Notes: generated by a model from the sequence alone, not told the origin. 64,000 nucleotides of DNA from an uncultured Alphaproteobacteria bacterium (GCA_902612825.1 CACMET010000003.1:50536-114535); one strand, 5' to 3'; positions 37,670 to 58,643 are shown, numbered from the stretch's first letter. Numbers and translations: made by a program.

Positions 37670-38281
37670 TTATAATCCACCTTGAGAAATTAAGAAGTCA
37701 GAAATTTTTTCAATTCCGTTATTATTTTTCATTTCACCAAAAATATAAGGTAAACCATTTCTGGCTTCATTCACATCCTCTTTCATTTGCTCTAAATCAA
37801 CATTAACATATGGAGCAAGGTCAACTTTATTAATTATGAGTAAATCAGACTTTCTAATTGCTGGTGCTTTTTTTCTCGGTATGTCGGCACCTTGAGCCAC
37901 ATCTATCATATAAATTGTTAAATCAACTAACTCTGGACTAAAAGTTGCTGCTAAATTATCACCACCTGACTCAATAAGGATTAACTCTAAATCTGGAAAT
38001 TTTTTTTTCATTTCATCAACTGCAAGTAAATTGATACTACAATCTTCTCTTATAGCAGTATGTGGACATCCCCCAGTTTCAACACCTTTAATTCTCTCTA
38101 TTGGTAGAACTTGTGCTTTCATTAGATATTCGGCATCTTCAGTTGTATAAATATCATTTGAAATAACTGCCATAGAGAATTTTTTAGATAAATAACGACA
38201 TAACGCTTCTGTTAAACTTGTTTTACCAGTCCCTATTCCGCCTCCAATACCAACTTTTAAAGGTCCATTTATATTATTCAC
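37670..38281 (-). CDS. ureG: Urease accessory GTPase UreG
   Basis: P-loop GGIGTGKTS; CPH metal motif ([11 protein letters not shown]); NKVDL. Confidence 0.95.
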
Positions 38282-38913
38282 GTTAAATAAATCCTTGAGT
38301 CTAAATATTCATGCTTAATGGCAAAAATATCACCAATAAAAAAACTTGAACCTATATCTTTAAGAGTCAGCTTATCTGAATGACTTAAAAATTCTTGAAT
38401 TTGATTAATAAAAATAACATTAAGACTCTGTCCATCTTTTTGAGACATTGGGATATGTTTTACACATACATTGATTAAATTAGTAATGAATGATTGTAGA
38501 TAAAACTTAATTAAATCATCAAACTTAATATTAAAATGTAATCCAGCTTTTGTTAAACAATATATAAATGATGTATTTTCAGGTAAAGATAATTCCCAAC
38601 TATCTTTCATGATTTTACGAAAAGAATTTCCCATATCTATCATTTCTATTTGCCTTTCTTTAGAAGAAGCACTTGCTAAGATTAATTGATTAATTTCATC
38701 ACCTTTGTAAATAGACTTAATAAAAATATAGTCATTTCTTAATGTTCCATAAAATAAAAGGGCATTTAAAAATTCTTTAACATCATTATTATTTTTAATT
38801 TTTTTATCATCAATCAGAGCTTCTAAACCATGAGAGTATGCGTAAGAACCTATAGGAAAAGAAGATGAAAACCATACTTGTAGTATTTGATGAGGATCTT
38901 TAAATTTTTTCAT
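38278..38913 (-). CDS. ureF: Urease accessory protein UreF
   Basis: [13 protein letters not shown] motif. I chose the start at 38913 (MKKFKDPHQ), just after the ureE stop, rather than the track start at 38979. Confidence 0.85.
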
Positions 38914-38914
38914 T

Positions 38915-39358
38915 TTAATGTTTGTGGCTATGTGTTCTGCCCATACCATAAGCACCACCTTCAGGTTTAAATTTTTCAAAAACTTTTTTTACATTTCCGT
39001 GTAATTTTAGAACCATATCAAGAATTACAGCATCATCTTGAATAAGAATTCTGTTTTCTTCAATTTGACATGGCAGATGTCTATTTCCTATGTGCCATAT
39101 GATTTGCTTTAAATTTTCACCCGTTATTTCAATTAGATTTTCTTCTTTAGATATAACTTTAATTAATTTTCCATTGTCTAATTCAAAATAATAATTTTCA
39201 TCAACACTGACGGTTTCTTCAAGATTAACTAAAAATTCAGTACCATTATTTGCTATAAGTTTTTTTCTACGAATGAATCTTTCTTCATAAGATAGTGAAA
39301 TTTCATCAAATACTTCTTTATCATTTTTGTGATGAATAATTTTGAATGAAGTATCCAT
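38915..39358 (-). CDS. ureE: Urease accessory protein UreE
   Basis: 147 aa with IGNRHLP and a His-rich tail THSHKH. Confidence 0.85.
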   Translation of the reverse strand: MDTSFKIIHHKNDKEVFDEISLSYEERFIRRKKLIANNGTEFLVNLEETVSVDENYYFELDNGKLIKVISKEENLIEITGENLKQIIWHIGNRHLPCQIEENRILIQDDAVILDMVLKLHGNVKKVFEKFKPEGGAYGMGRTHSHKH

Positions 39359-39359
39359 T

Positions 39360-41066
39360 TTAGTACATAAAATAACGTTGAGCTAAAGGTAGTGTTTCAG
39401 CTGGCTCACAAGTAATTAATTCACCATCTGCTAAAACTTCGTAAGTTTCTGGATTCACTTCGATTTTTGGACAATAATCATTAAATATCATATCCTTTTT
39501 TGAAATTTTTCTGATATTTTTAACTGGCAATAAAGATTTACTAATTCCAGAATTTTTGAATGAATTTTTATCAAGAGATGCTTTACTTACAAATGTTGTG
39601 GTAGATTTTTCTAATGATTTTCCAAAGGAAGAAAACATTGGTCTTGAGTATACTGGTTGTGGTGTCGGTATAGATGCATTAGGATCACCCATTTGTGCGC
39701 AAGCAATACTTCCACCTTGCAAAACCATTTCAGGTTTAACACCAAAAAAAGCAGTGTCCCAAATAACAATATCAGCACGTTTATTTTTTTCAATACTTCC
39801 AATATATTCGGAAATACCATGGGCAATTGCAGGATTAATTGTATATTTAGCAATATATCTTTTAACTCTTACATTGTCGTTATCACCCTGCTCTTCTTTT
39901 AATTGTCCCCGTTGAACTTTCATTTTATGTGCTGTTTGCCATGTTCTAATAATAACCTCACCAACACGACCCATAGCTTGACTATCAGAAGCAATAATTG
40001 AAAAAGCACCCATGTCATGCAGTATATCTTCTGCAGCAATTGTTTCCTTTCGAATTCGACTTTCAGCAAAAGCAACGTCTTCAGGTATTGATTTATCTAA
40101 GTGATGACAAACCATTAACATATCCAAATGCTCTTCAACTGTATTAACTGTATAGGGCCTAGTTGGATTAGTTGAAGAAGGAATAACATATTCTTCACCA
40201 CAAACTTTTATAATATCAGGTGCATGACCACCACCAGCTCCTTCAGTATGAAAAGCATGAATTGTTCTTCCATTAATTGCTTTAATTGTGCTTTCCACAA
40301 AACCACTTTCATTTAATGTATCTGTGTGAATCATAACTTGGATATCATAGTCATCAGCTACATTTAAACAATTATCTATTGCTGCCGGGGTTGTTCCCCA
40401 ATCTTCATGTAATTTTAGTGAACTTGCACCAGCAATTACTTGTTCTAAAAGTGCTTTAGGCAATGAACTATTTCCTTTACCTGCAAAAGCCAAGTTCATA
40501 GAAAAAGCATCTGCTGATTGTATCATTTTTTCTATATGCCATGGTCCAGGTGTAACTGTAGTTGCCAAAGTGCCATGTGCAGGTCCAGTTCCACCTCCCA
40601 ACATTGTTGTGATACCTGAATGAAGAGCATCGTCAATTTGCTGAGGACAAATAAAATGGATATGACTATCAAATCCGCCAGCTGTTATAATTTTACCTTC
40701 CCCAGCAATTATTTCTGTTCCTGGTCCAATAATAATATTTACATTTGGTTGTGTATCCGGATTACCAGCCTTTCCAATCTCATTAATTAAACCATCTTTA
40801 AGTCCAATATCTGCTTTATAAATTCCATTTACATCTATTATTAAAGCGTTTGTTATGACTGTATCAACAGCACCATCTATACGAGATACTTGAGATTGTC
40901 CCATTCCATCTCGAATGACCTTTCCTCCACCAAATTTTACTTCTTCTCCATATGTTGTTAAATCTTTTTCCACTTCAATAAAAAGTTCAGTGTCAGCAAG
41001 TCTAACTTTATCACCAGTTGTTGGTCCATACATATCGGCATAAGCTTCTCTTTTTATTTTTTTCAT
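39360..41066 (-). CDS. ureC: Urease alpha subunit
   Basis: 568 aa with [17 protein letters not shown] and the carbamylated-Lys context LKLHEDWG. Confidence 0.97.
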
Positions 41067-41374
41067 TACAATTGACCCATAACTTTCTTATTAAAACCAA
41101 ATATCTTTCTATTTCCGGTTATCGGAATTAATTCTATATCTTTTGATTGACCTGGTTCAAATCGAACAGCTGTACCAGATGGTATATCTAAGCGCATACC
41201 ATGTGATTTATCTCTATCAAATTTTAAATATTTATTTGTTTCTGCAAAATGATAATGACTACCAACTTGAATTGGTCGATCTCCACTATTTGAAACTTTT
41301 ATAGTGATTGATTGTCTTTCACCATTCAAATTAATGTCACTATTTTGTTTTGTTATTATCTCACCAGGTTTCAT
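41066..41374 (-). CDS. ureB: Urease beta subunit
   Basis: 102 aa with MKPGEI..., [13 protein letters not shown] and RFEPG. Confidence 0.95.
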
Positions 41375-41676
41375 TATCTTATCGGTTTATGTACTGTTAC
41401 TAATTTTGTTCCATCAGGAAATGTTGCTTCTACCTGTACTTCAGGTATCATATCTGGAATACCATCCATGCAATCTTCTTTTTTTACTACGTGAGCCCCT
41501 GTTTCCATTAACTCTGATACCATTTTTCCATCTCTTGCACCTTCTATTACAAAATCTGTTATCAACGCTATAGCTTCTGGATAATTAAGTTTTACACCTC
41601 TTTCTAAACGTTTTCTGGCAACATTAGCTGCCATACTCACCATCAACTTATCTTTTTCTCTTGGTGTTAATTTCAT
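41374..41676 (-). CDS. ureA: Urease gamma subunit
   Basis: 100 aa with [12 protein letters not shown]... and [14 protein letters not shown]. Confidence 0.95.
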
Positions 41677-42471
41677 TTATAGATTCCAACTTTTTGGTAG
41701 TTTATCATTTATTACATTTTTCATAATAAAATTTAGTGTTTTTTTTAAATCATAATTATCATTGGCTAAGCACCTAATTACAATTTTATCATCAAATTTT
41801 GTCATTTCACAATAATGATTTTCTAAGTTTTTTGTAACTTTACTTATTTCAGACTCAAGTTGATGAATAATATCACCAAAAATTAAAACTGTTGCTAAAG
41901 ATGATTGATTATTAAATGTATAATTATTATTAAAATTATCAATCGTTGATCCTTTTATATTAATTGCTTCAAAATGCTTTATGGAAGAATTCGTAAAAAT
42001 TTTCCATTGATCAGAAAAAGAAATATTTTTAATTTTTTCAAACATTGCTTTTCTTCCAAAAATTGTAGTTTCACAAAAAATCAAATTAGAATTATCTGAT
42101 AGATTAACATTTATATTTCTTCTTAATTTTGAATTATCAAATAAAATTAACTCTTTGGGCAACCAATACAAAGTTGAATTATTTAAATTGATATTTATGT
42201 TAACTTTAGCAGGATCACCAATGCCAGCATAAATTTTTTCAGCAGCTTGAGTACAAATACTTAATTGAGAATTATGAATTGTAGCATTAATATCAATACT
42301 ATCATTACAAGTAATTCCACCTGCAGTGTTAATTAAAACTAATTCTTTATTATCATTATAATTTTTTGGATTTAAAATTTTACAACAACCGCTTTGAAAT
42401 AATTTTTTAAAATTATTATCTAGTAATTCGATATTAATTTTCCCATTTGACCTTTGAAGTAATTTATCCAT
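41677..42471 (-). CDS. ureD: Urease accessory protein UreD
   Basis: 264 aa at the first position of the ureDABCEFG array, with a UreD-like pattern. Confidence 0.8.
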   Translation of the reverse strand: MDKLLQRSNGKINIELLDNNFKKLFQSGCCKILNPKNYNDNKELVLINTAGGITCNDSIDINATIHNSQLSICTQAAEKIYAGIGDPAKVNININLNNSTLYWLPKELILFDNSKLRRNINVNLSDNSNLIFCETTIFGRKAMFEKIKNISFSDQWKIFTNSSIKHFEAINIKGSTIDNFNNNYTFNNQSSLATVLIFGDIIHQLESEISKVTKNLENHYCEMTKFDDKIVIRCLANDNYDLKKTLNFIMKNVINDKLPKSWNL

Positions 42472-54684: not shown

Positions 54685-55017
54685 TTACCACATTGAATGG
54701 ATAACATCTGAACTATTAATTTTTACTAAATTCTCACATTTACTTTCAAAATCACTAAAATCATCTCTAAAAGTTGCTCCATTATTTTGTGCTTGCTCAA
54801 AATGATTATCTATTCCTTCTTGATTTTCATAAACCTCTGTTAGAATTAGAGAAATATTGCCTGTTTTATTTCCATCTTTAAATTCAGGGCCTATAGACCA
54901 ATTTAACATTAAAAGTGCATTATTACCTTCCTTTGTATGTGTTTCCTCCATCCATTTTGTATGATCTTCAGCAATTCTTTTTGCAATATCAATAAGTTTA
55001 GGTTTAAAAAAATCCAT
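54685..55017 (-). CDS. Small soluble protein, unknown function
   Basis: 110-aa ORF with no SD of its own; see the uORF finding. Confidence 0.45.
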   Translation of the reverse strand: MDFFKPKLIDIAKRIAEDHTKWMEETHTKEGNNALLMLNWSIGPEFKDGNKTGNISLILTEVYENQEGIDNHFEQAQNNGATFRDDFSDFESKCENLVKINSSDVIHSMW

Positions 55018-55101: not shown

Positions 55102-55941
55102 TTATTGTTGAGAATCATTTTCCAATGTTTGTACATGAATATCTAAGTTTTCTATCACAGCATCATTATTAATATTTCCATAAAAAACACCCTTAATAGG
55201 TGATGCGTAACTTGCATCAAGTCCACAAGAAACACGTACGTATCTTTCATCTGGACTGCACTTATTTGTAGGATCAAATCCCACCCAACCTAAATCATGT
55301 ATATAAAATTCTGCCCACGCATGTGTAGATTGAAATTCTGAAGAATGGGAATTGTTATGCATATAACCATTAACGTATCTAGCAGGTATTCCTAAAGTTT
55401 TTGCTGCGGCAATCATAATATGTGCTTGATCCTGACAGACTCCCTTTTTCTGATTAAATGCTTCAATAGCTGTTGTTTGATTATTTGTCGTTAAAGGTTT
55501 GTATTCAATTTTTTCAGCTATTAGATTCATCAGATTATGAGATGTTTCTAGATTTTCATTTTCATTAAAACCATTTTTAGCTTCAATAGCTAAATTTTTT
55601 ATATCCGCATTTGCTTTTGTTAAATTTGATTCTCTTAAGTAAACTAAAGGATCTATTTTATCAGAAGCACTATGGTAAATTCCTTTTGTATCAAATGTTT
55701 CAACTTTTCCAAGAACTGTAAATTGTATTTTTTTCACCTTGTTTGTATTTGTAAAACTTTGAATATTATTAGCCTCACCATCCTGATAAATTTTTGATTT
55801 TTTGGCTGAGTCGTTATGGACATTCCACTTTAAAATTTTAAGACCATTATATTCTGAAGGATGCAGTTTAGTGGTTTGAATTAATCCCGCAACTGGATTT
55901 TTATATTCATACTTAGTTGTGTGTTCGATTATTAGTTCCAT
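55102..55941 (-). CDS. Transglutaminase-like cysteine peptidase family protein (Bact_transglu_N + transglutaminase core)
   Basis: GVCQDQAHIM (Cys), HAWAEFY (His) and GFDPTN (Asp). I chose the start at 55941 (MELIIEHTTKYEY), just after the alpha-E stop. Confidence 0.85.
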   Translation of the reverse strand: MELIIEHTTKYEYKNPVAGLIQTTKLHPSEYNGLKILKWNVHNDSAKKSKIYQDGEANNIQSFTNTNKVKKIQFTVLGKVETFDTKGIYHSASDKIDPLVYLRESNLTKANADIKNLAIEAKNGFNENENLETSHNLMNLIAEKIEYKPLTTNNQTTAIEAFNQKKGVCQDQAHIMIAAAKTLGIPARYVNGYMHNNSHSSEFQSTHAWAEFYIHDLGWVGFDPTNKCSPDERYVRVSCGLDASYASPIKGVFYGNINNDAVIENLDIHVQTLENDSQQ

Positions 55942-55942
55942 A

Positions 55943-56878
55943 TTAATTAAAAAACTCCTTATGTATTTCGTTATCAACACTAGATATTTTTCTAATAAAT
56001 TGTGTTACAAATTGATGAAGTCCATATTCAACAATAGTTTCTATTTTTTCTTCTTGAATTTTAGTATTTAGATCTTTTAAATTATTATAAATTCTTGCAA
56101 CTTTTTCTGGACTGCATGTTAGGTTAGTTAAATGTTTAACAATATTCTGAATACAAAAACTTAAAGATCTAGGGCAATTATTATTTAAAACTAAAAAGTC
56201 AGCAATTTTAGTTGCGGTAATATTACCATCGTATGCCCATCTAAAAGCTCTAAAAGAAGATAAAGAGCGAAGCAATATACTCCATTGCATATTATCGATA
56301 TTACCACCTACATATTGAGGCTTAGGTAATAAAACAAAATACTTTACATCTAATAATCTGGCAGAATTATCAGCCCTCTCAATAAATAAACCAAGAAAAA
56401 GAAAATTATAACCATCATTTCTAAGCAAAGAACTTAATGATCCTCTAAATAAGTTTACTTGTTCTATTGTCCACTCTGTCAGATCAGGTAAATCAGATTT
56501 TGTAAATTTTTGTTCTTTTAAGTTTAGTATCTCTTGATAAGTTTTATTAATTGCTAACCAAGACTCAGGGGTAAAGGAAGTTCTAACTACTAATGCGTTA
56601 TTTCGCGCATTAAGAATACAATTGTAAACAGATGAAGGATTACTTTCATCAAAAAATAAATAATCTTCCACATTTTTCTGTTCAATTGTATCATATTTAT
56701 TTTTATACCCCTCAATTGCTCCAGCAGCAGATAAAACTGATTCCCATTCATTATTATAACCACTTGGATTTGGAAAAAGAGACATTCTATAACCAACATC
56801 TAAAAGCCTGGCTGTAGTTTCAGCTCTTTCCATATAACGACTGATCCAATATAGATATTCAGCAGTTCTACTTAACAT
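55943..56878 (-). CDS. Alpha-E domain protein (DUF403, COG2307)
   Basis: MLSRTAEYLYWISRYMERAE... and a second ERADNSARLLDV repeat, typical of alpha-E. Confidence 0.85.
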   Translation of the reverse strand: MLSRTAEYLYWISRYMERAETTARLLDVGYRMSLFPNPSGYNNEWESVLSAAGAIEGYKNKYDTIEQKNVEDYLFFDESNPSSVYNCILNARNNALVVRTSFTPESWLAINKTYQEILNLKEQKFTKSDLPDLTEWTIEQVNLFRGSLSSLLRNDGYNFLFLGLFIERADNSARLLDVKYFVLLPKPQYVGGNIDNMQWSILLRSLSSFRAFRWAYDGNITATKIADFLVLNNNCPRSLSFCIQNIVKHLTNLTCSPEKVARIYNNLKDLNTKIQEEKIETIVEYGLHQFVTQFIRKISSVDNEIHKEFFN

Positions 56879-56887
56879 TTTTATTCC

Positions 56888-58297
56888 TCATTCAGCCAAA
56901 ACCCATGTGTCTTTCACTCCGCCTCCTTGGCTAGAATTGACAACAAAAGAACCTTCATTCATTGCAACTCTGGTTAAACCACCAGAACTTAATTGAGCTT
57001 GCTCTCCAATTAAACAAAATGGACGTAAATCTACCCTTCTTCCCTCAACTTGATTTTTGATTAGTGTTGGTGAAAATGAAAGATCAAGTAAAGGTTGAGC
57101 TATATATCCTTTTGGATTTGTTGAGAGTTTTGTTTTAAATTCATCTATAGAGGATTTAGAAGATTTTGGACCTATTAACATCCCATAACCTCCAGATCCA
57201 TCAACCTCTTTTACGACAAGTTCATTTATATTATCTAAAACATATTTTAATTCTTGTTCCTTTTCACAATTCCATGTTTCAACATTATCTAAGATTGGTT
57301 GTTCGCCTAAATAAAATTTGATCATCTCAGGTACATAAATATAAATTGCTTTGTCATCAGCTATGCCTGCTCCAGGAGCTGAACAGATATTGACACCACC
57401 TGTTCTATAAACATCCATAATTCCTGGAATACCAATTACAGATTGAGGATTAAAACATAAAGGATCTAAAAAATCGTCATCTATTCTTCTGTAAACTACA
57501 TCTACTCTTTTTGGACCATCAACTGTTTTCATATAAAGATATTTTCCTTCAACAAATAAATCTGTTGATTCAACCATTTCAATACCCATTTGATCTGATA
57601 AAAAACTATGTTCGTAGTAAGCGCTATTTAAAGGACCAGGTGTAAGTAACACACATACTGGTTCTGGATTTTCACATTTAATAGGAGCTAAACTCATCAA
57701 GGTTTGCAAAAGTCTTGTTGGGTAGTCATCTATTGGTGTTACCCTGTTGTTATGAAATAAATCAGGAAACATTCGCATCATTATTTCTCTATTTTCTAGC
57801 ATGTAAGAAACACCACTTGGTGTTCGACAATTATCTTCTAAAACAAAATAATCATTGGGACCTGTTCTTACTAAATCAATACCAATTATAGGACTATAGA
57901 TATCTCTAGGAGGAGAAAAACCAAACATTGAAGGTTCAAAAGATTTTTTTTTGTAAATTATTTCTTTAGGAATTATATTAGCTTTTATTATTTCACCTTG
58001 ATTATAAATATCAGCAAGAAACGCATTAAGTGCTTTAGCTCTTTGGATTACTCCTCTTTCTAATCTTAACCATTCAGTATAGGTAAATATCCTTGGAATT
58101 AAATCAAACGGAATAATTCTTTCTCTTGCAGTTTCATTATTTGTAGAAAATGTAATTCCAATATTTCTAAAATGAGTTTCAGCTTCAGCATTCTTTTCAA
58201 GAATAACTTTTGAAGTCATTTGATCTAACCAATCATTAATATTGTTATAATGATTTCTTATAACTGTTTCAGATTGATACATTTCATTAAACATCAA
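56888..58297 (-). CDS. Circularly permuted type-2 ATP-grasp protein (DUF404/DUF407, COG2308)
   Basis: GITFS, IIPFDLIPRIFTYTEW, VLEDNCRTPSGVSYMLENR. The start is TTG 58297 or ATG 58294, with AGAGG upstream. Confidence 0.9.
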   Translation of the reverse strand: MMFNEMYQSETVIRNHYNNINDWLDQMTSKVILEKNAEAETHFRNIGITFSTNNETARERIIPFDLIPRIFTYTEWLRLERGVIQRAKALNAFLADIYNQGEIIKANIIPKEIIYKKKSFEPSMFGFSPPRDIYSPIIGIDLVRTGPNDYFVLEDNCRTPSGVSYMLENREIMMRMFPDLFHNNRVTPIDDYPTRLLQTLMSLAPIKCENPEPVCVLLTPGPLNSAYYEHSFLSDQMGIEMVESTDLFVEGKYLYMKTVDGPKRVDVVYRRIDDDFLDPLCFNPQSVIGIPGIMDVYRTGGVNICSAPGAGIADDKAIYIYVPEMIKFYLGEQPILDNVETWNCEKEQELKYVLDNINELVVKEVDGSGGYGMLIGPKSSKSSIDEFKTKLSTNPKGYIAQPLLDLSFSPTLIKNQVEGRRVDLRPFCLIGEQAQLSSGGLTRVAMNEGSFVVNSSQGGGVKDTWVLAE

Positions 58298-58422
58298 TGA
58301 GTGAACCTCTTGAGATTTGAATAGAATATTTTTTTATTATCTAACTTTTTAACCATAGTTATAACAAACCTTTCTTATCCGTTATAATTCATGCTTAGCT
58401 ATGGAAATTAATAATAAGATCC

Positions 58423-58474
58423 GCGTTCCTTCAGCTTTAGCCTACTTCCGATCTGTTAATACAGATTGAACGAT
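58423..58474 (-). promoter_or_regulatory. Glutamine riboswitch aptamer (glnA RNA motif), gene-proximal copy
   Basis: Minus strand UCGUUCA-AUCUGUAUUAACAGAU-CGGAAGUA-GGCUAAAGCU-GAAGGAACGC, with P1 CGUUC/GAACG and two internal hairpins. Confidence 0.75.
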
Positions 58475-58488
58475 TTAATAACTTGCAT

Positions 58489-58541
58489 GCGTTCCTTCAA
58501 CTTTCGTTTACTTCCGTTTTGAATTATTCAAAATGAACGAT
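58489..58541 (-). promoter_or_regulatory. Glutamine riboswitch aptamer (glnA RNA motif), distal copy
   Basis: Minus strand UCGUUCA-UUUUGAAUAAUUCAAAA-CGGAAGUA-AACGAAAGUU-GAAGGAACGC. The conserved blocks are the same, and the hairpin sequences differ but keep their pairing. Confidence 0.75.
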
Positions 58542-58643
58542 GAAATTTTAATAATAAAATTTATTTATTTTTAAAAATGAATTTCATACTTATTTGATAT
58601 GCATTTTTTGCATATACAAAATAATATTGAATTACTTATGGTT

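Follow-up and report, generated by a model that had tools for sequence, protein, structure and literature searches.

The stretch analysed here, 64,000 nucleotides (nt) of DNA from an uncultured Alphaproteobacteria bacterium (GCA_902612825.1 CACMET010000003.1:50536-114535) that is referred to in full as the window, carries on its minus strand three tightly packed genes preceded by two glutamine riboswitch aptamers in tandem. The first gene of this triad (56888..58294) encodes a circularly permuted (CP) ATP-grasp protein of 468 amino acids (aa) (COG2308), which matches the Pfam families PF14403 (CP_ATPgrasp_2) and PF04174 (CP_ATPgrasp_1) with an E-value of 4e-153. It is followed by the gene for an Alpha-E protein of 311 aa (COG2307; 55943..56878; PF04168, E 1e-86) and by that of a transglutaminase-like Cys peptidase of 279 aa (COG1305; 55102..55941), matched by both PF08379 (Bact_transglu_N, E 5e-12) and PF01841 (Transglut_core, E 2e-24). 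The gap between the ATP-grasp and Alpha-E genes measures 9 nt, while a single nucleotide separates the Alpha-E gene from the ATG (55941) of the transglutaminase-like gene. An earlier note on this DNA had proposed the same gene identities and the same two gaps, and the Pfam matches and the coordinates agree with it on both. By Pfam content, the three families occur in the order ATP-grasp, Alpha-E and transglutaminase-like that defines this operon (Iyer 2009; Valas & Bourne 2008).

Aptamer 1 (58486..58541) and aptamer 2 (58420..58474), both on the minus strand, score 66.0 bits (E 2e-12) and 64.2 bits (E 7e-12), respectively, against the Rfam glutamine riboswitch model RF01739, the gathering score of which is 35 bits. 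Both matches span the whole model (positions 1–53 of 53), in keeping with the two glutamine aptamers that the earlier note had placed before the triad. The aptamers are located on the same strand as the triad, ~125 nt upstream of the ATP-grasp gene, within a 350-nt intergenic region downstream of a CDP-alcohol phosphatidyltransferase gene. In a set of 22 homologous leaders, drawn from the triad, amt and glutamine-synthetase types, the aptamer helices P2 and P3 (of both aptamers) display two-sided changes in 17 of 19 pairs, and P1 and the junctions are invariant. The possibility of a separate promoter between the aptamers and the ATP-grasp gene had also been raised, and a consensus scan of this segment revealed no terminator-like and no minus-strand promoter-like site. 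From its sequence, the leader is predicted to bind glutamine selectively and to change expression in a ligand-dependent manner.

The association of the aptamers with the triad extends well beyond the window. A search with the ATP-grasp protein, taking one genome per species, yielded 80 loci (individual loci and contigs are designated by L numbers), and in all of them the ATP-grasp gene is followed by the Alpha-E gene; the transglutaminase-like gene comes next in 78, and L026 and L047 end within Alpha-E. The aptamers are found directly upstream of the triad in 26 of the 26 loci with an ATP-grasp protein at least 86% identical, 25 of these displaying both aptamers and one being cut by the contig end. 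All 26 are single-cell genomes and metagenome-assembled genomes named 'uncultured Alphaproteobacteria'. The aptamers remain with the triad in subgroup 4 (L022-L025), where the flanking genes differ, and similarly in L015, where a 2.4 kb insertion lies upstream. Three further relatives (L321, L322 and L323) were reached through the Alpha-E protein. L323, a low-GC metagenomic contig with an ATP-grasp protein 88% identical, contains tandem aptamers, and none are present in L322, a Pelagibacteraceae-type contig, or in L321, a high-GC genome that carries Anbu, a Proteasome-family gene. The nearest other relatives are Pelagibacteraceae (ATP-grasp identity of 73–77%), and no aptamers were found in their 17 loci by pattern and Rfam searches, nor, by pattern only, in 37 other alphaproteobacterial loci (mostly Rhodobacterales, 61–64%). 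Judged from these comparisons of sequence, the link between aptamers and triad is conserved in at least 27 lineages and selected, and it is confined to one low-GC clade. The earlier note had asked about such co-occurrence in other genomes: the arrangement is not unique to one genome, occurring in all 26 clade genomes as well as in L323, but its distribution is limited to this clade.

The same leader module precedes other nitrogen genes. Contigs bearing the aptamer pattern were sampled, without constituting a census, as 120 viral contigs from IMG/VR and 120 metagenomic contigs (L201-L320), and all figures given for them refer to the matches listed. On low-GC metagenomic contigs (0.27–0.32), a near-identical module lies ahead of amt (L215, L266, L305, L317 and L318, with a variant in L297), where it comprises the same palindrome described below, the linker CATGCAAAGTTATTAAAT and the segment CGGAxCTTAT...ATTTCCATAGCTAAGCATGA. 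A glutamine-synthetase-like gene is preceded by the same module with the variant box TTTCATAACTAGAGCATGA (L250 and L293; L260 and L263 are cut). The remaining contexts include gltB, glnA, type II glutamine synthetase and many open reading frames (ORFs) of 40–100 aa. The triad itself is present on none of the 120 IMG/VR and none of the 120 metagenomic contigs, and thus represents a minor member of the overall gene set of this riboswitch. The shared cassette is the strongest evidence available here and suggests that the triad belongs to one glutamine regulon together with amt and glutamine-synthetase genes. Glutamine control of the triad, as put forward in the earlier note, is therefore well supported, since at least 27 lineages retain the aptamers beside the triad, despite changes in the flanks, and the same module stands before amt and glutamine-synthetase genes. 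Other arrangements were seen among the sampled contigs. In L252 (243-450) the same type of tandem leader, with a ~60-nt hairpin inserted in the linker, precedes an ORF of 127 aa with a signal-peptide-like N-terminus, and ~50 leaders among L201-L320 are followed by an ORF of 40–100 aa that starts 18–32 nt past the aptamer. Recurrent peptide families behind the L201-L320 aptamers comprise '...INGNGTSG' and YRG-repeat proteins.

The leader displays a succession of conserved elements, all on the minus strand, between the promoter region and the ATP-grasp start. A perfect palindrome, ATATGCA-N5-TGCATAT (58597..58615), occurs in one copy in the window, ~55 nt upstream of aptamer 1. It is kept in all triad leaders and is also found in the metagenomic amt leaders L208, L215, L266, L282, L305 and L317, and as a candidate transcription factor site it may add a second layer of control. 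A promoter-like sequence, TTAAAA-18-TAAAAT (58545..58574), ends 4 nt before aptamer 1 and was identified by a consensus scan in which the density of sites is no higher than in shuffled sequence. The 3' tail of aptamer 1 is formed by the linker C-AUGC-AA-GUUAU (58478..58489), which in the RNAalifold prediction pairs with a downstream box and thereby provides the 5' strand of a helix enclosing aptamer 2. This box, UUUCC-AUAGCUAA-GCAUGA, follows the aptamer 2 tail GGAU and an AU-rich loop (58389..58422 for the three elements) and is a proposed anti-initiation segment, which the tails of both aptamers would hold. Pairing in the linker-box helix holds for CAUGC:GCAUG in all 22 leaders and for GUUAU:AUAGC in 90% of cells. 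The box is invariant across triad and amt leaders and is changed to UUUCAUAACUAGAGCAUGA in glutamine-synthetase leaders. Immediately downstream, the hairpin UUAUAAC...GUUAUAA (58359..58387) presents a Shine-Dalgarno-like AAGAAAGG (58375-58369) in its loop. The stem of this hairpin covaries by subgroup (ATAACGG/TTTGTTAT, ATAACAG/CTGTTAT, ATAGCAG/CTGTTAT and ATAACAAA/TTTGTTAT), and the loop displays either GAAAGG or AAGGAG. Only 8 of the 42 long ORFs in the window have a Shine-Dalgarno-like motif at most 17 nt from the first ATG, and the conserved Shine-Dalgarno-like sequences of the riboswitch-controlled leaders stand out as exceptions. A different platform is observed in L323 (2326-2585), where the tandem aptamers are accompanied by a strong hairpin, GUGGGAUG...CAUCCCAC, whose loop contains CCCUCC, and a leader ORF of 16–20 codons is absent.

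The hairpin is followed by a short leader ORF of 20 codons (MVKKLDNKKIFYSNLKRFTH; 58294..58356, minus strand), the TGA stop of which has its A in common with the ATP-grasp ATG. A leader ORF of 16–20 codons occupies the same position in 27 of the 27 leaders examined. It starts 30–32 nt past the box in every case, and its stop falls in a range from 6 nt ahead of the ATP-grasp ATG to 8 nt into the gene, the probability of such an ORF arising by chance, estimated by shuffling, being 0.07–0.11 per lineage. The encoded peptides are unrelated between subgroups (MVKKLDNKKIFYSNLKRFTH, MIGIKFGFINTSFISSY, MIDFKFGFFNNFFNSF and MIEWLFKKNFLFLITLFSSF). Thus, an ORF is conserved without conservation of its peptide, which indicates that translation itself and the point at which it ends are what is kept. 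This pattern fits a predicted termination-reinitiation coupling to the ATP-grasp gene, the ATG of which lacks a Shine-Dalgarno site in 13 leaders. A role of the leader peptide as a substrate resembling ribosomally synthesised and post-translationally modified peptides, or as a sensor, was considered and rejected, because the sequence differs between subgroups and the composition just tracks AT-rich codons.

The direction of switching was approached through the pairing partners of the aptamer tails. Of 53 short metagenomic leaders, 40 have a Shine-Dalgarno site exactly complementary to the first 4 nt after P1, compared with 7 of 53 in shuffles. These nucleotides read CACC, CATC, CACT or CAAT and so covary with the Shine-Dalgarno site, an observation in support of the published principle by which glutamine disrupts the helix formed by the tail. 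With the Shine-Dalgarno site as the partner of the tail, the short leaders are expected to be ON switches. The tandem module displays a distinct organisation, its two tails being complementary to the two halves of the invariant box and not to the Shine-Dalgarno site. In turn, most leaders show a complementarity above shuffles between 16 nt of the box and the initiation region (p 0.00–0.12 in 10 of 17). The respective pairs are UUUCCAU/AUGGAGG in amt leaders, AUUUCAU/AUGAAAU in glutamine-synthetase leaders, CCAUAG/CUAUGG in the subgroup of the window and AAAAUCCA/UGGAUUUU in subgroups 2 and 3. When the whole post-aptamer segment was compared with positions -20 to +16, the complementarity was not significant in triad leaders; the 16-nt comparison, made against a broader region, yielded the clearer signal, albeit an uneven one. 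A chain of three segments, made up of tails, box and initiation region, thus inverts the logic of the short leaders and predicts an OFF switch. The gltB leaders L213 and L285 contain one aptamer and, downstream of it, four segments that are complementary to each other, CACCAAACT, AGAGTTTGGTG, CATCAAACTCTAG and TAGAGTATG; a chain of four segments predicts ON for glutamate synthase. The predicted set, with IF17 and GOGAT switched ON and with amt, glutamine synthetase and the triad switched OFF, would make physiological sense, and the OFF prediction matches the induction of the triad under nitrogen limitation in other bacteria. Platform logic, combined with this analogy, makes the triad leader a probable glutamine-OFF switch, and a glutamine-ON leader appears doubtful.

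The explanation that is favoured on balance is that the triad constitutes an output of a conserved tandem glutamine riboswitch, which operates as a glutamine-OFF element within an RNA-based nitrogen regulon (amt, glutamine-synthetase genes and the triad) of a low-GC lineage related to Pelagibacterales. Transcription would start just upstream of aptamer 1, with control at the protein level possibly added by the upstream palindrome. The 3' tail of each aptamer would open with a C that pairs inside the aptamer once glutamine is bound, and each tail would otherwise pair with one half of the invariant downstream segment UUUCC / AUAGCUAAGCAUG. At low glutamine the tails would hold this segment, leaving accessible both the hairpin that presents the Shine-Dalgarno sequence and the AUG of the leader ORF. 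The leader ORF would then be translated, and ribosomes ending at or beside the ATP-grasp AUG would re-initiate there. At high glutamine both tails would be drawn into the aptamers, and the freed segment would pair with the initiation region, so that the leader ORF is translated less. The ATP-grasp gene would be affected likewise, and the rest of the operon with it through the tight packing of its genes. The triad would consequently be made under nitrogen limitation, as are its Pseudomonas and Burkholderia orthologs under NtrC and sigma-54.

The same riboswitch could also operate with the opposite sign. Glutamine would in that case stabilise the aptamers together with the enclosing helix, the box would be kept off the initiation region, and the triad would be made at high glutamine for buffering, storage or detoxification, for example by forming an amide-linked product as cyanophycin synthetase does; nitrogen buffering had been suggested in the earlier note. 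Such an arrangement is regarded as unlikely, although a number of observations weigh against the glutamine-OFF scheme and several of them point towards it. The only functionally tested glutamine riboswitch, that of gifB (Klähn et al. 2018, PMC6212724), is an ON switch: the ribosome binding site is sequestered by pairing with the C that follows P1 and with its neighbours, and glutamine melts this duplex. In SAR11 HTCC1062, the Amt protein SAR11_1310 is produced only under nitrogen-replete conditions at constant mRNA levels, so that a glutamine-ON amt leader is conceivable. Many predicted minimum-free-energy folds with P0 and the hairpin leave the initiation region unpaired, and a P1 stabilised by the ligand may favour the helix enclosing aptamer 2, an equally simple argument that leads to ON. 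When 12 leaders were folded with and without enforced aptamer helices, the accessibility of the Shine-Dalgarno sequence and AUG changed inconsistently and the two states were unseparated. In triad subgroup 4 the complementarity between box and initiation region does not reach significance, and in the subgroup of the window it is only marginal (p 0.08). The strands of the linker-box helix are nearly invariant and covary only from A-U to G-U, and hence neither prove nor disprove this helix. As to the coupling, starts devoid of a Shine-Dalgarno site are normal in this genome, which makes the missing site before the ATP-grasp gene weak evidence, and L323 has no leader ORF. The amt and glutamine-synthetase leaders lie on metagenomic contigs, which may stem from organisms other than those with the triad. 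What speaks against the ON arrangement is that the tails pair with a segment other than the Shine-Dalgarno sequence, whereas the tail of ON-type leaders is the anti-Shine-Dalgarno sequence itself, and that the released box is complementary to the initiation regions. In addition, nitrogen limitation induces the co-regulated amt and glutamine-synthetase genes as well as orthologous triads in three other Proteobacteria.

Two further explanations would disconnect the riboswitch from the triad. The riboswitch might act on the micropeptide of the leader ORF alone, with the triad expressed from its own start signals, and this would be in line with the 40–100 aa ORFs that follow most metagenomic glutamine riboswitches among the matches listed and with the AAGAGG that the subgroup of the window has before its ATP-grasp ATG. 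It is nonetheless improbable, as the subgroups share the ORF and the place where it ends, at the ATP-grasp ATG, but not the peptide, and neither terminator-like nor minus-strand promoter-like sites were detected in between. Moreover, the aptamers accompany the triad into new genomic contexts, and L323 combines aptamers and triad without the short ORF. Least probable of all is the lack of any effect on the triad, with the aptamers as non-functional remnants or as part of the 3' untranslated region of the upstream CDP-alcohol phosphatidyltransferase gene, a very remote prospect given that both score ~30 bits above the threshold, that their helices show compensatory changes and that they are retained in at least 27 lineages, including those with a different upstream gene.

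A nitrogen-related role of the operon is consistent with what has been reported for its orthologs. The triad was defined by comparative genomics as the Anbu operon, according to papers citing the original description (Iyer 2009), and the only activity reported for its proteins is the hydrolysis of ATP by the Yersinia ATP-grasp protein. In P. putida the orthologous operon is among 'the most upregulated genes' at nitrogen limitation and rises ~16-fold in nitrate relative to ammonium. In a B. cenocepacia ntrC mutant its expression is reduced 6- to 9.4-fold, and in Bradyrhizobium a sigma-54 promoter lies ahead of the ATP-grasp gene. The link between this operon and nitrogen that the earlier note had put forward is therefore not new, since in P. 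putida and B. cenocepacia the operon ranks among those induced most strongly by nitrogen limitation in dependence on NtrC and sigma-54. Glutamine riboswitches, tandem copies among them, have been described ahead of PII, glutamine synthetase, GOGAT and amt genes, and SAR11 HTCC1062 is devoid of PII and NtrBC. No link between the triad and a glutamine riboswitch was found in accessible papers, and an earlier mention elsewhere is conceivable. The nitrogen link of the operon was already known; new, as far as checked, are the route through a riboswitch, the cassette in common with other nitrogen genes and the leader ORF. It can be proposed, tentatively, that the triad is a core proteobacterial nitrogen-starvation module in which the regulator was swapped from NtrC and sigma-54 to a tandem glutamine riboswitch, with glutamine-OFF logic, two tails caging one anti-initiation sequence and output through a coupled leader ORF.

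Other upstream elements were seen in relatives without aptamers. In the Pelagibacteraceae operons (L026-L043 and L322), a conserved motif, TGTCAATTTGGCAA(A/T)(G/T)GCATAAAATTAA, lies ~55 nt ahead of the ATP-grasp ATG. A search for the sigma-54 element TGGCAC-N5-TTGC before the 37 other alphaproteobacterial triads (mostly Rhodobacterales) revealed no motif resembling it. Many of L044-L080 (mostly Rhodobacterales) present repeated TGCACAA / TTGCAC-like elements 100–250 nt upstream of the ATP-grasp gene, which may be NtrC-type sites.

At the protein level, the ATP-grasp protein has a homolog over its full length in PDB 3n6x (E 6e-175), an uncharacterised structural-genomics entry titled 'putative glutathionylspermidine synthase'. 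In the transglutaminase-like protein, alignment to PDB 3isr and 6g49 shows that the motifs of the catalytic Cys169, His207 and Asp223 are retained (GVC169QD, H207AW and FD223P). The AlphaFold2 model of Alpha-E is all-helical, with a predicted local distance difference test (pLDDT) score of 85. Neither a fold match for this model (best E 0.22, template modelling (TM) score 0.13) nor a sequence match for the protein was found in the PDB, and an NCBIfam search returned no names for any of the proteins. No Anbu gene is found next to the triad in the window, the following ORF (54685-55017, 110 aa) displaying no Pfam or NCBIfam match. The enzymatic role of the triad is likely to consist of ATP-dependent ligation of amides or peptides combined with Cys-dependent hydrolysis of amides or peptides, for nitrogen scavenging or for protein and peptide turnover. 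The safest functional reading is that of a system for times of nitrogen scarcity, in which an ATP-dependent amide ligase would work with a putative Cys-dependent amidase, peptidase or transamidase and with a helical protein as a further partner. A cycle of gamma-glutamyl ligation and hydrolysis, as the earlier note had envisaged, is a possible form of this chemistry. If the switch is turned OFF by glutamine, as proposed, scavenging or turnover fits better than the buffering of surplus nitrogen. Elsewhere in the window, 15 kb from the triad, lies a urease cluster (UreD, urease alpha, UreF and UreG; 37670-42471, minus strand). An Rfam match to '5_ureB_sRNA' (113.8 bits; 40628-40917, plus strand) lies antisense within the urease alpha gene and may merely mirror a conserved coding sequence. 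Across marine metagenomes, triad domains have been reported to track urea-metabolism domains in abundance.

The triad is among the most widespread bacterial operons without a known substrate, and the only earlier physiological clue to its role was NtrC-dependent induction in a few Proteobacteria. A glutamine sensor ahead of the same genes in an unrelated regulatory setting provides independent, convergent evidence for a function in nitrogen economy, although the chemistry is not revealed thereby. With its three genes, the leader also forms a small system of RNA and enzymes that is amenable to testing and comes from a lineage abundant in the ocean. If the proposed scheme is true, the extended tandem leader could be the first glutamine riboswitch with OFF logic, and it may help to explain how nitrogen assimilation is controlled in marine bacteria devoid of PII and NtrC.

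The leader shares several properties with known systems and departs from each of them. Together with the type 1 glutamine riboswitch (glnA RNA) of Synechocystis gifB (PMC6212724) and the marine glnA RNA motifs (Weinberg 2010, PMC2864571), it belongs to class RF01739, in which translation is controlled by the nucleotides right after P1, and both tandem copies and an association with amt, glutamine synthetase and GOGAT were already noted for the marine motifs (PMC2864571). In contrast, the output here is the triad, which is not among the associated genes named in the accessible texts on gifB and the marine glnA RNAs. Unlike the tail of gifB, the tails pair with a conserved box instead of the Shine-Dalgarno site, which predicts OFF, and a leader ORF bridges the switch and the first enzyme gene. 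The Anbu operon (COG2308-COG2307-COG1305-Anbu), as represented by PP_2685-2688 of P. putida and I35_5080-83 of B. cenocepacia, contains the three orthologous genes in the same order and within a nitrogen regulon. In the window, however, no Anbu follows the triad, and the predicted regulator is a glutamine-sensing RNA rather than NtrC and sigma-54. Tandem glycine riboswitches and the Pelagibacter tandem SAM-II/SAM-V similarly combine two aptamers with one expression platform, the latter in a streamlined marine genome, whereas here each aptamer tail would hold one half of a single anti-initiation segment. Finally, the leader ORF resembles the coupled leader ORFs of the UGAUG/UAAUG termination-reinitiation type, in which the stop of a short upstream ORF overlaps the downstream start or lies at most 6 nt from it. 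It differs from these in that the riboswitch presumably acts on the site where the leader ORF itself is initiated, while its peptide is unconserved and carries no obvious sensor codons.

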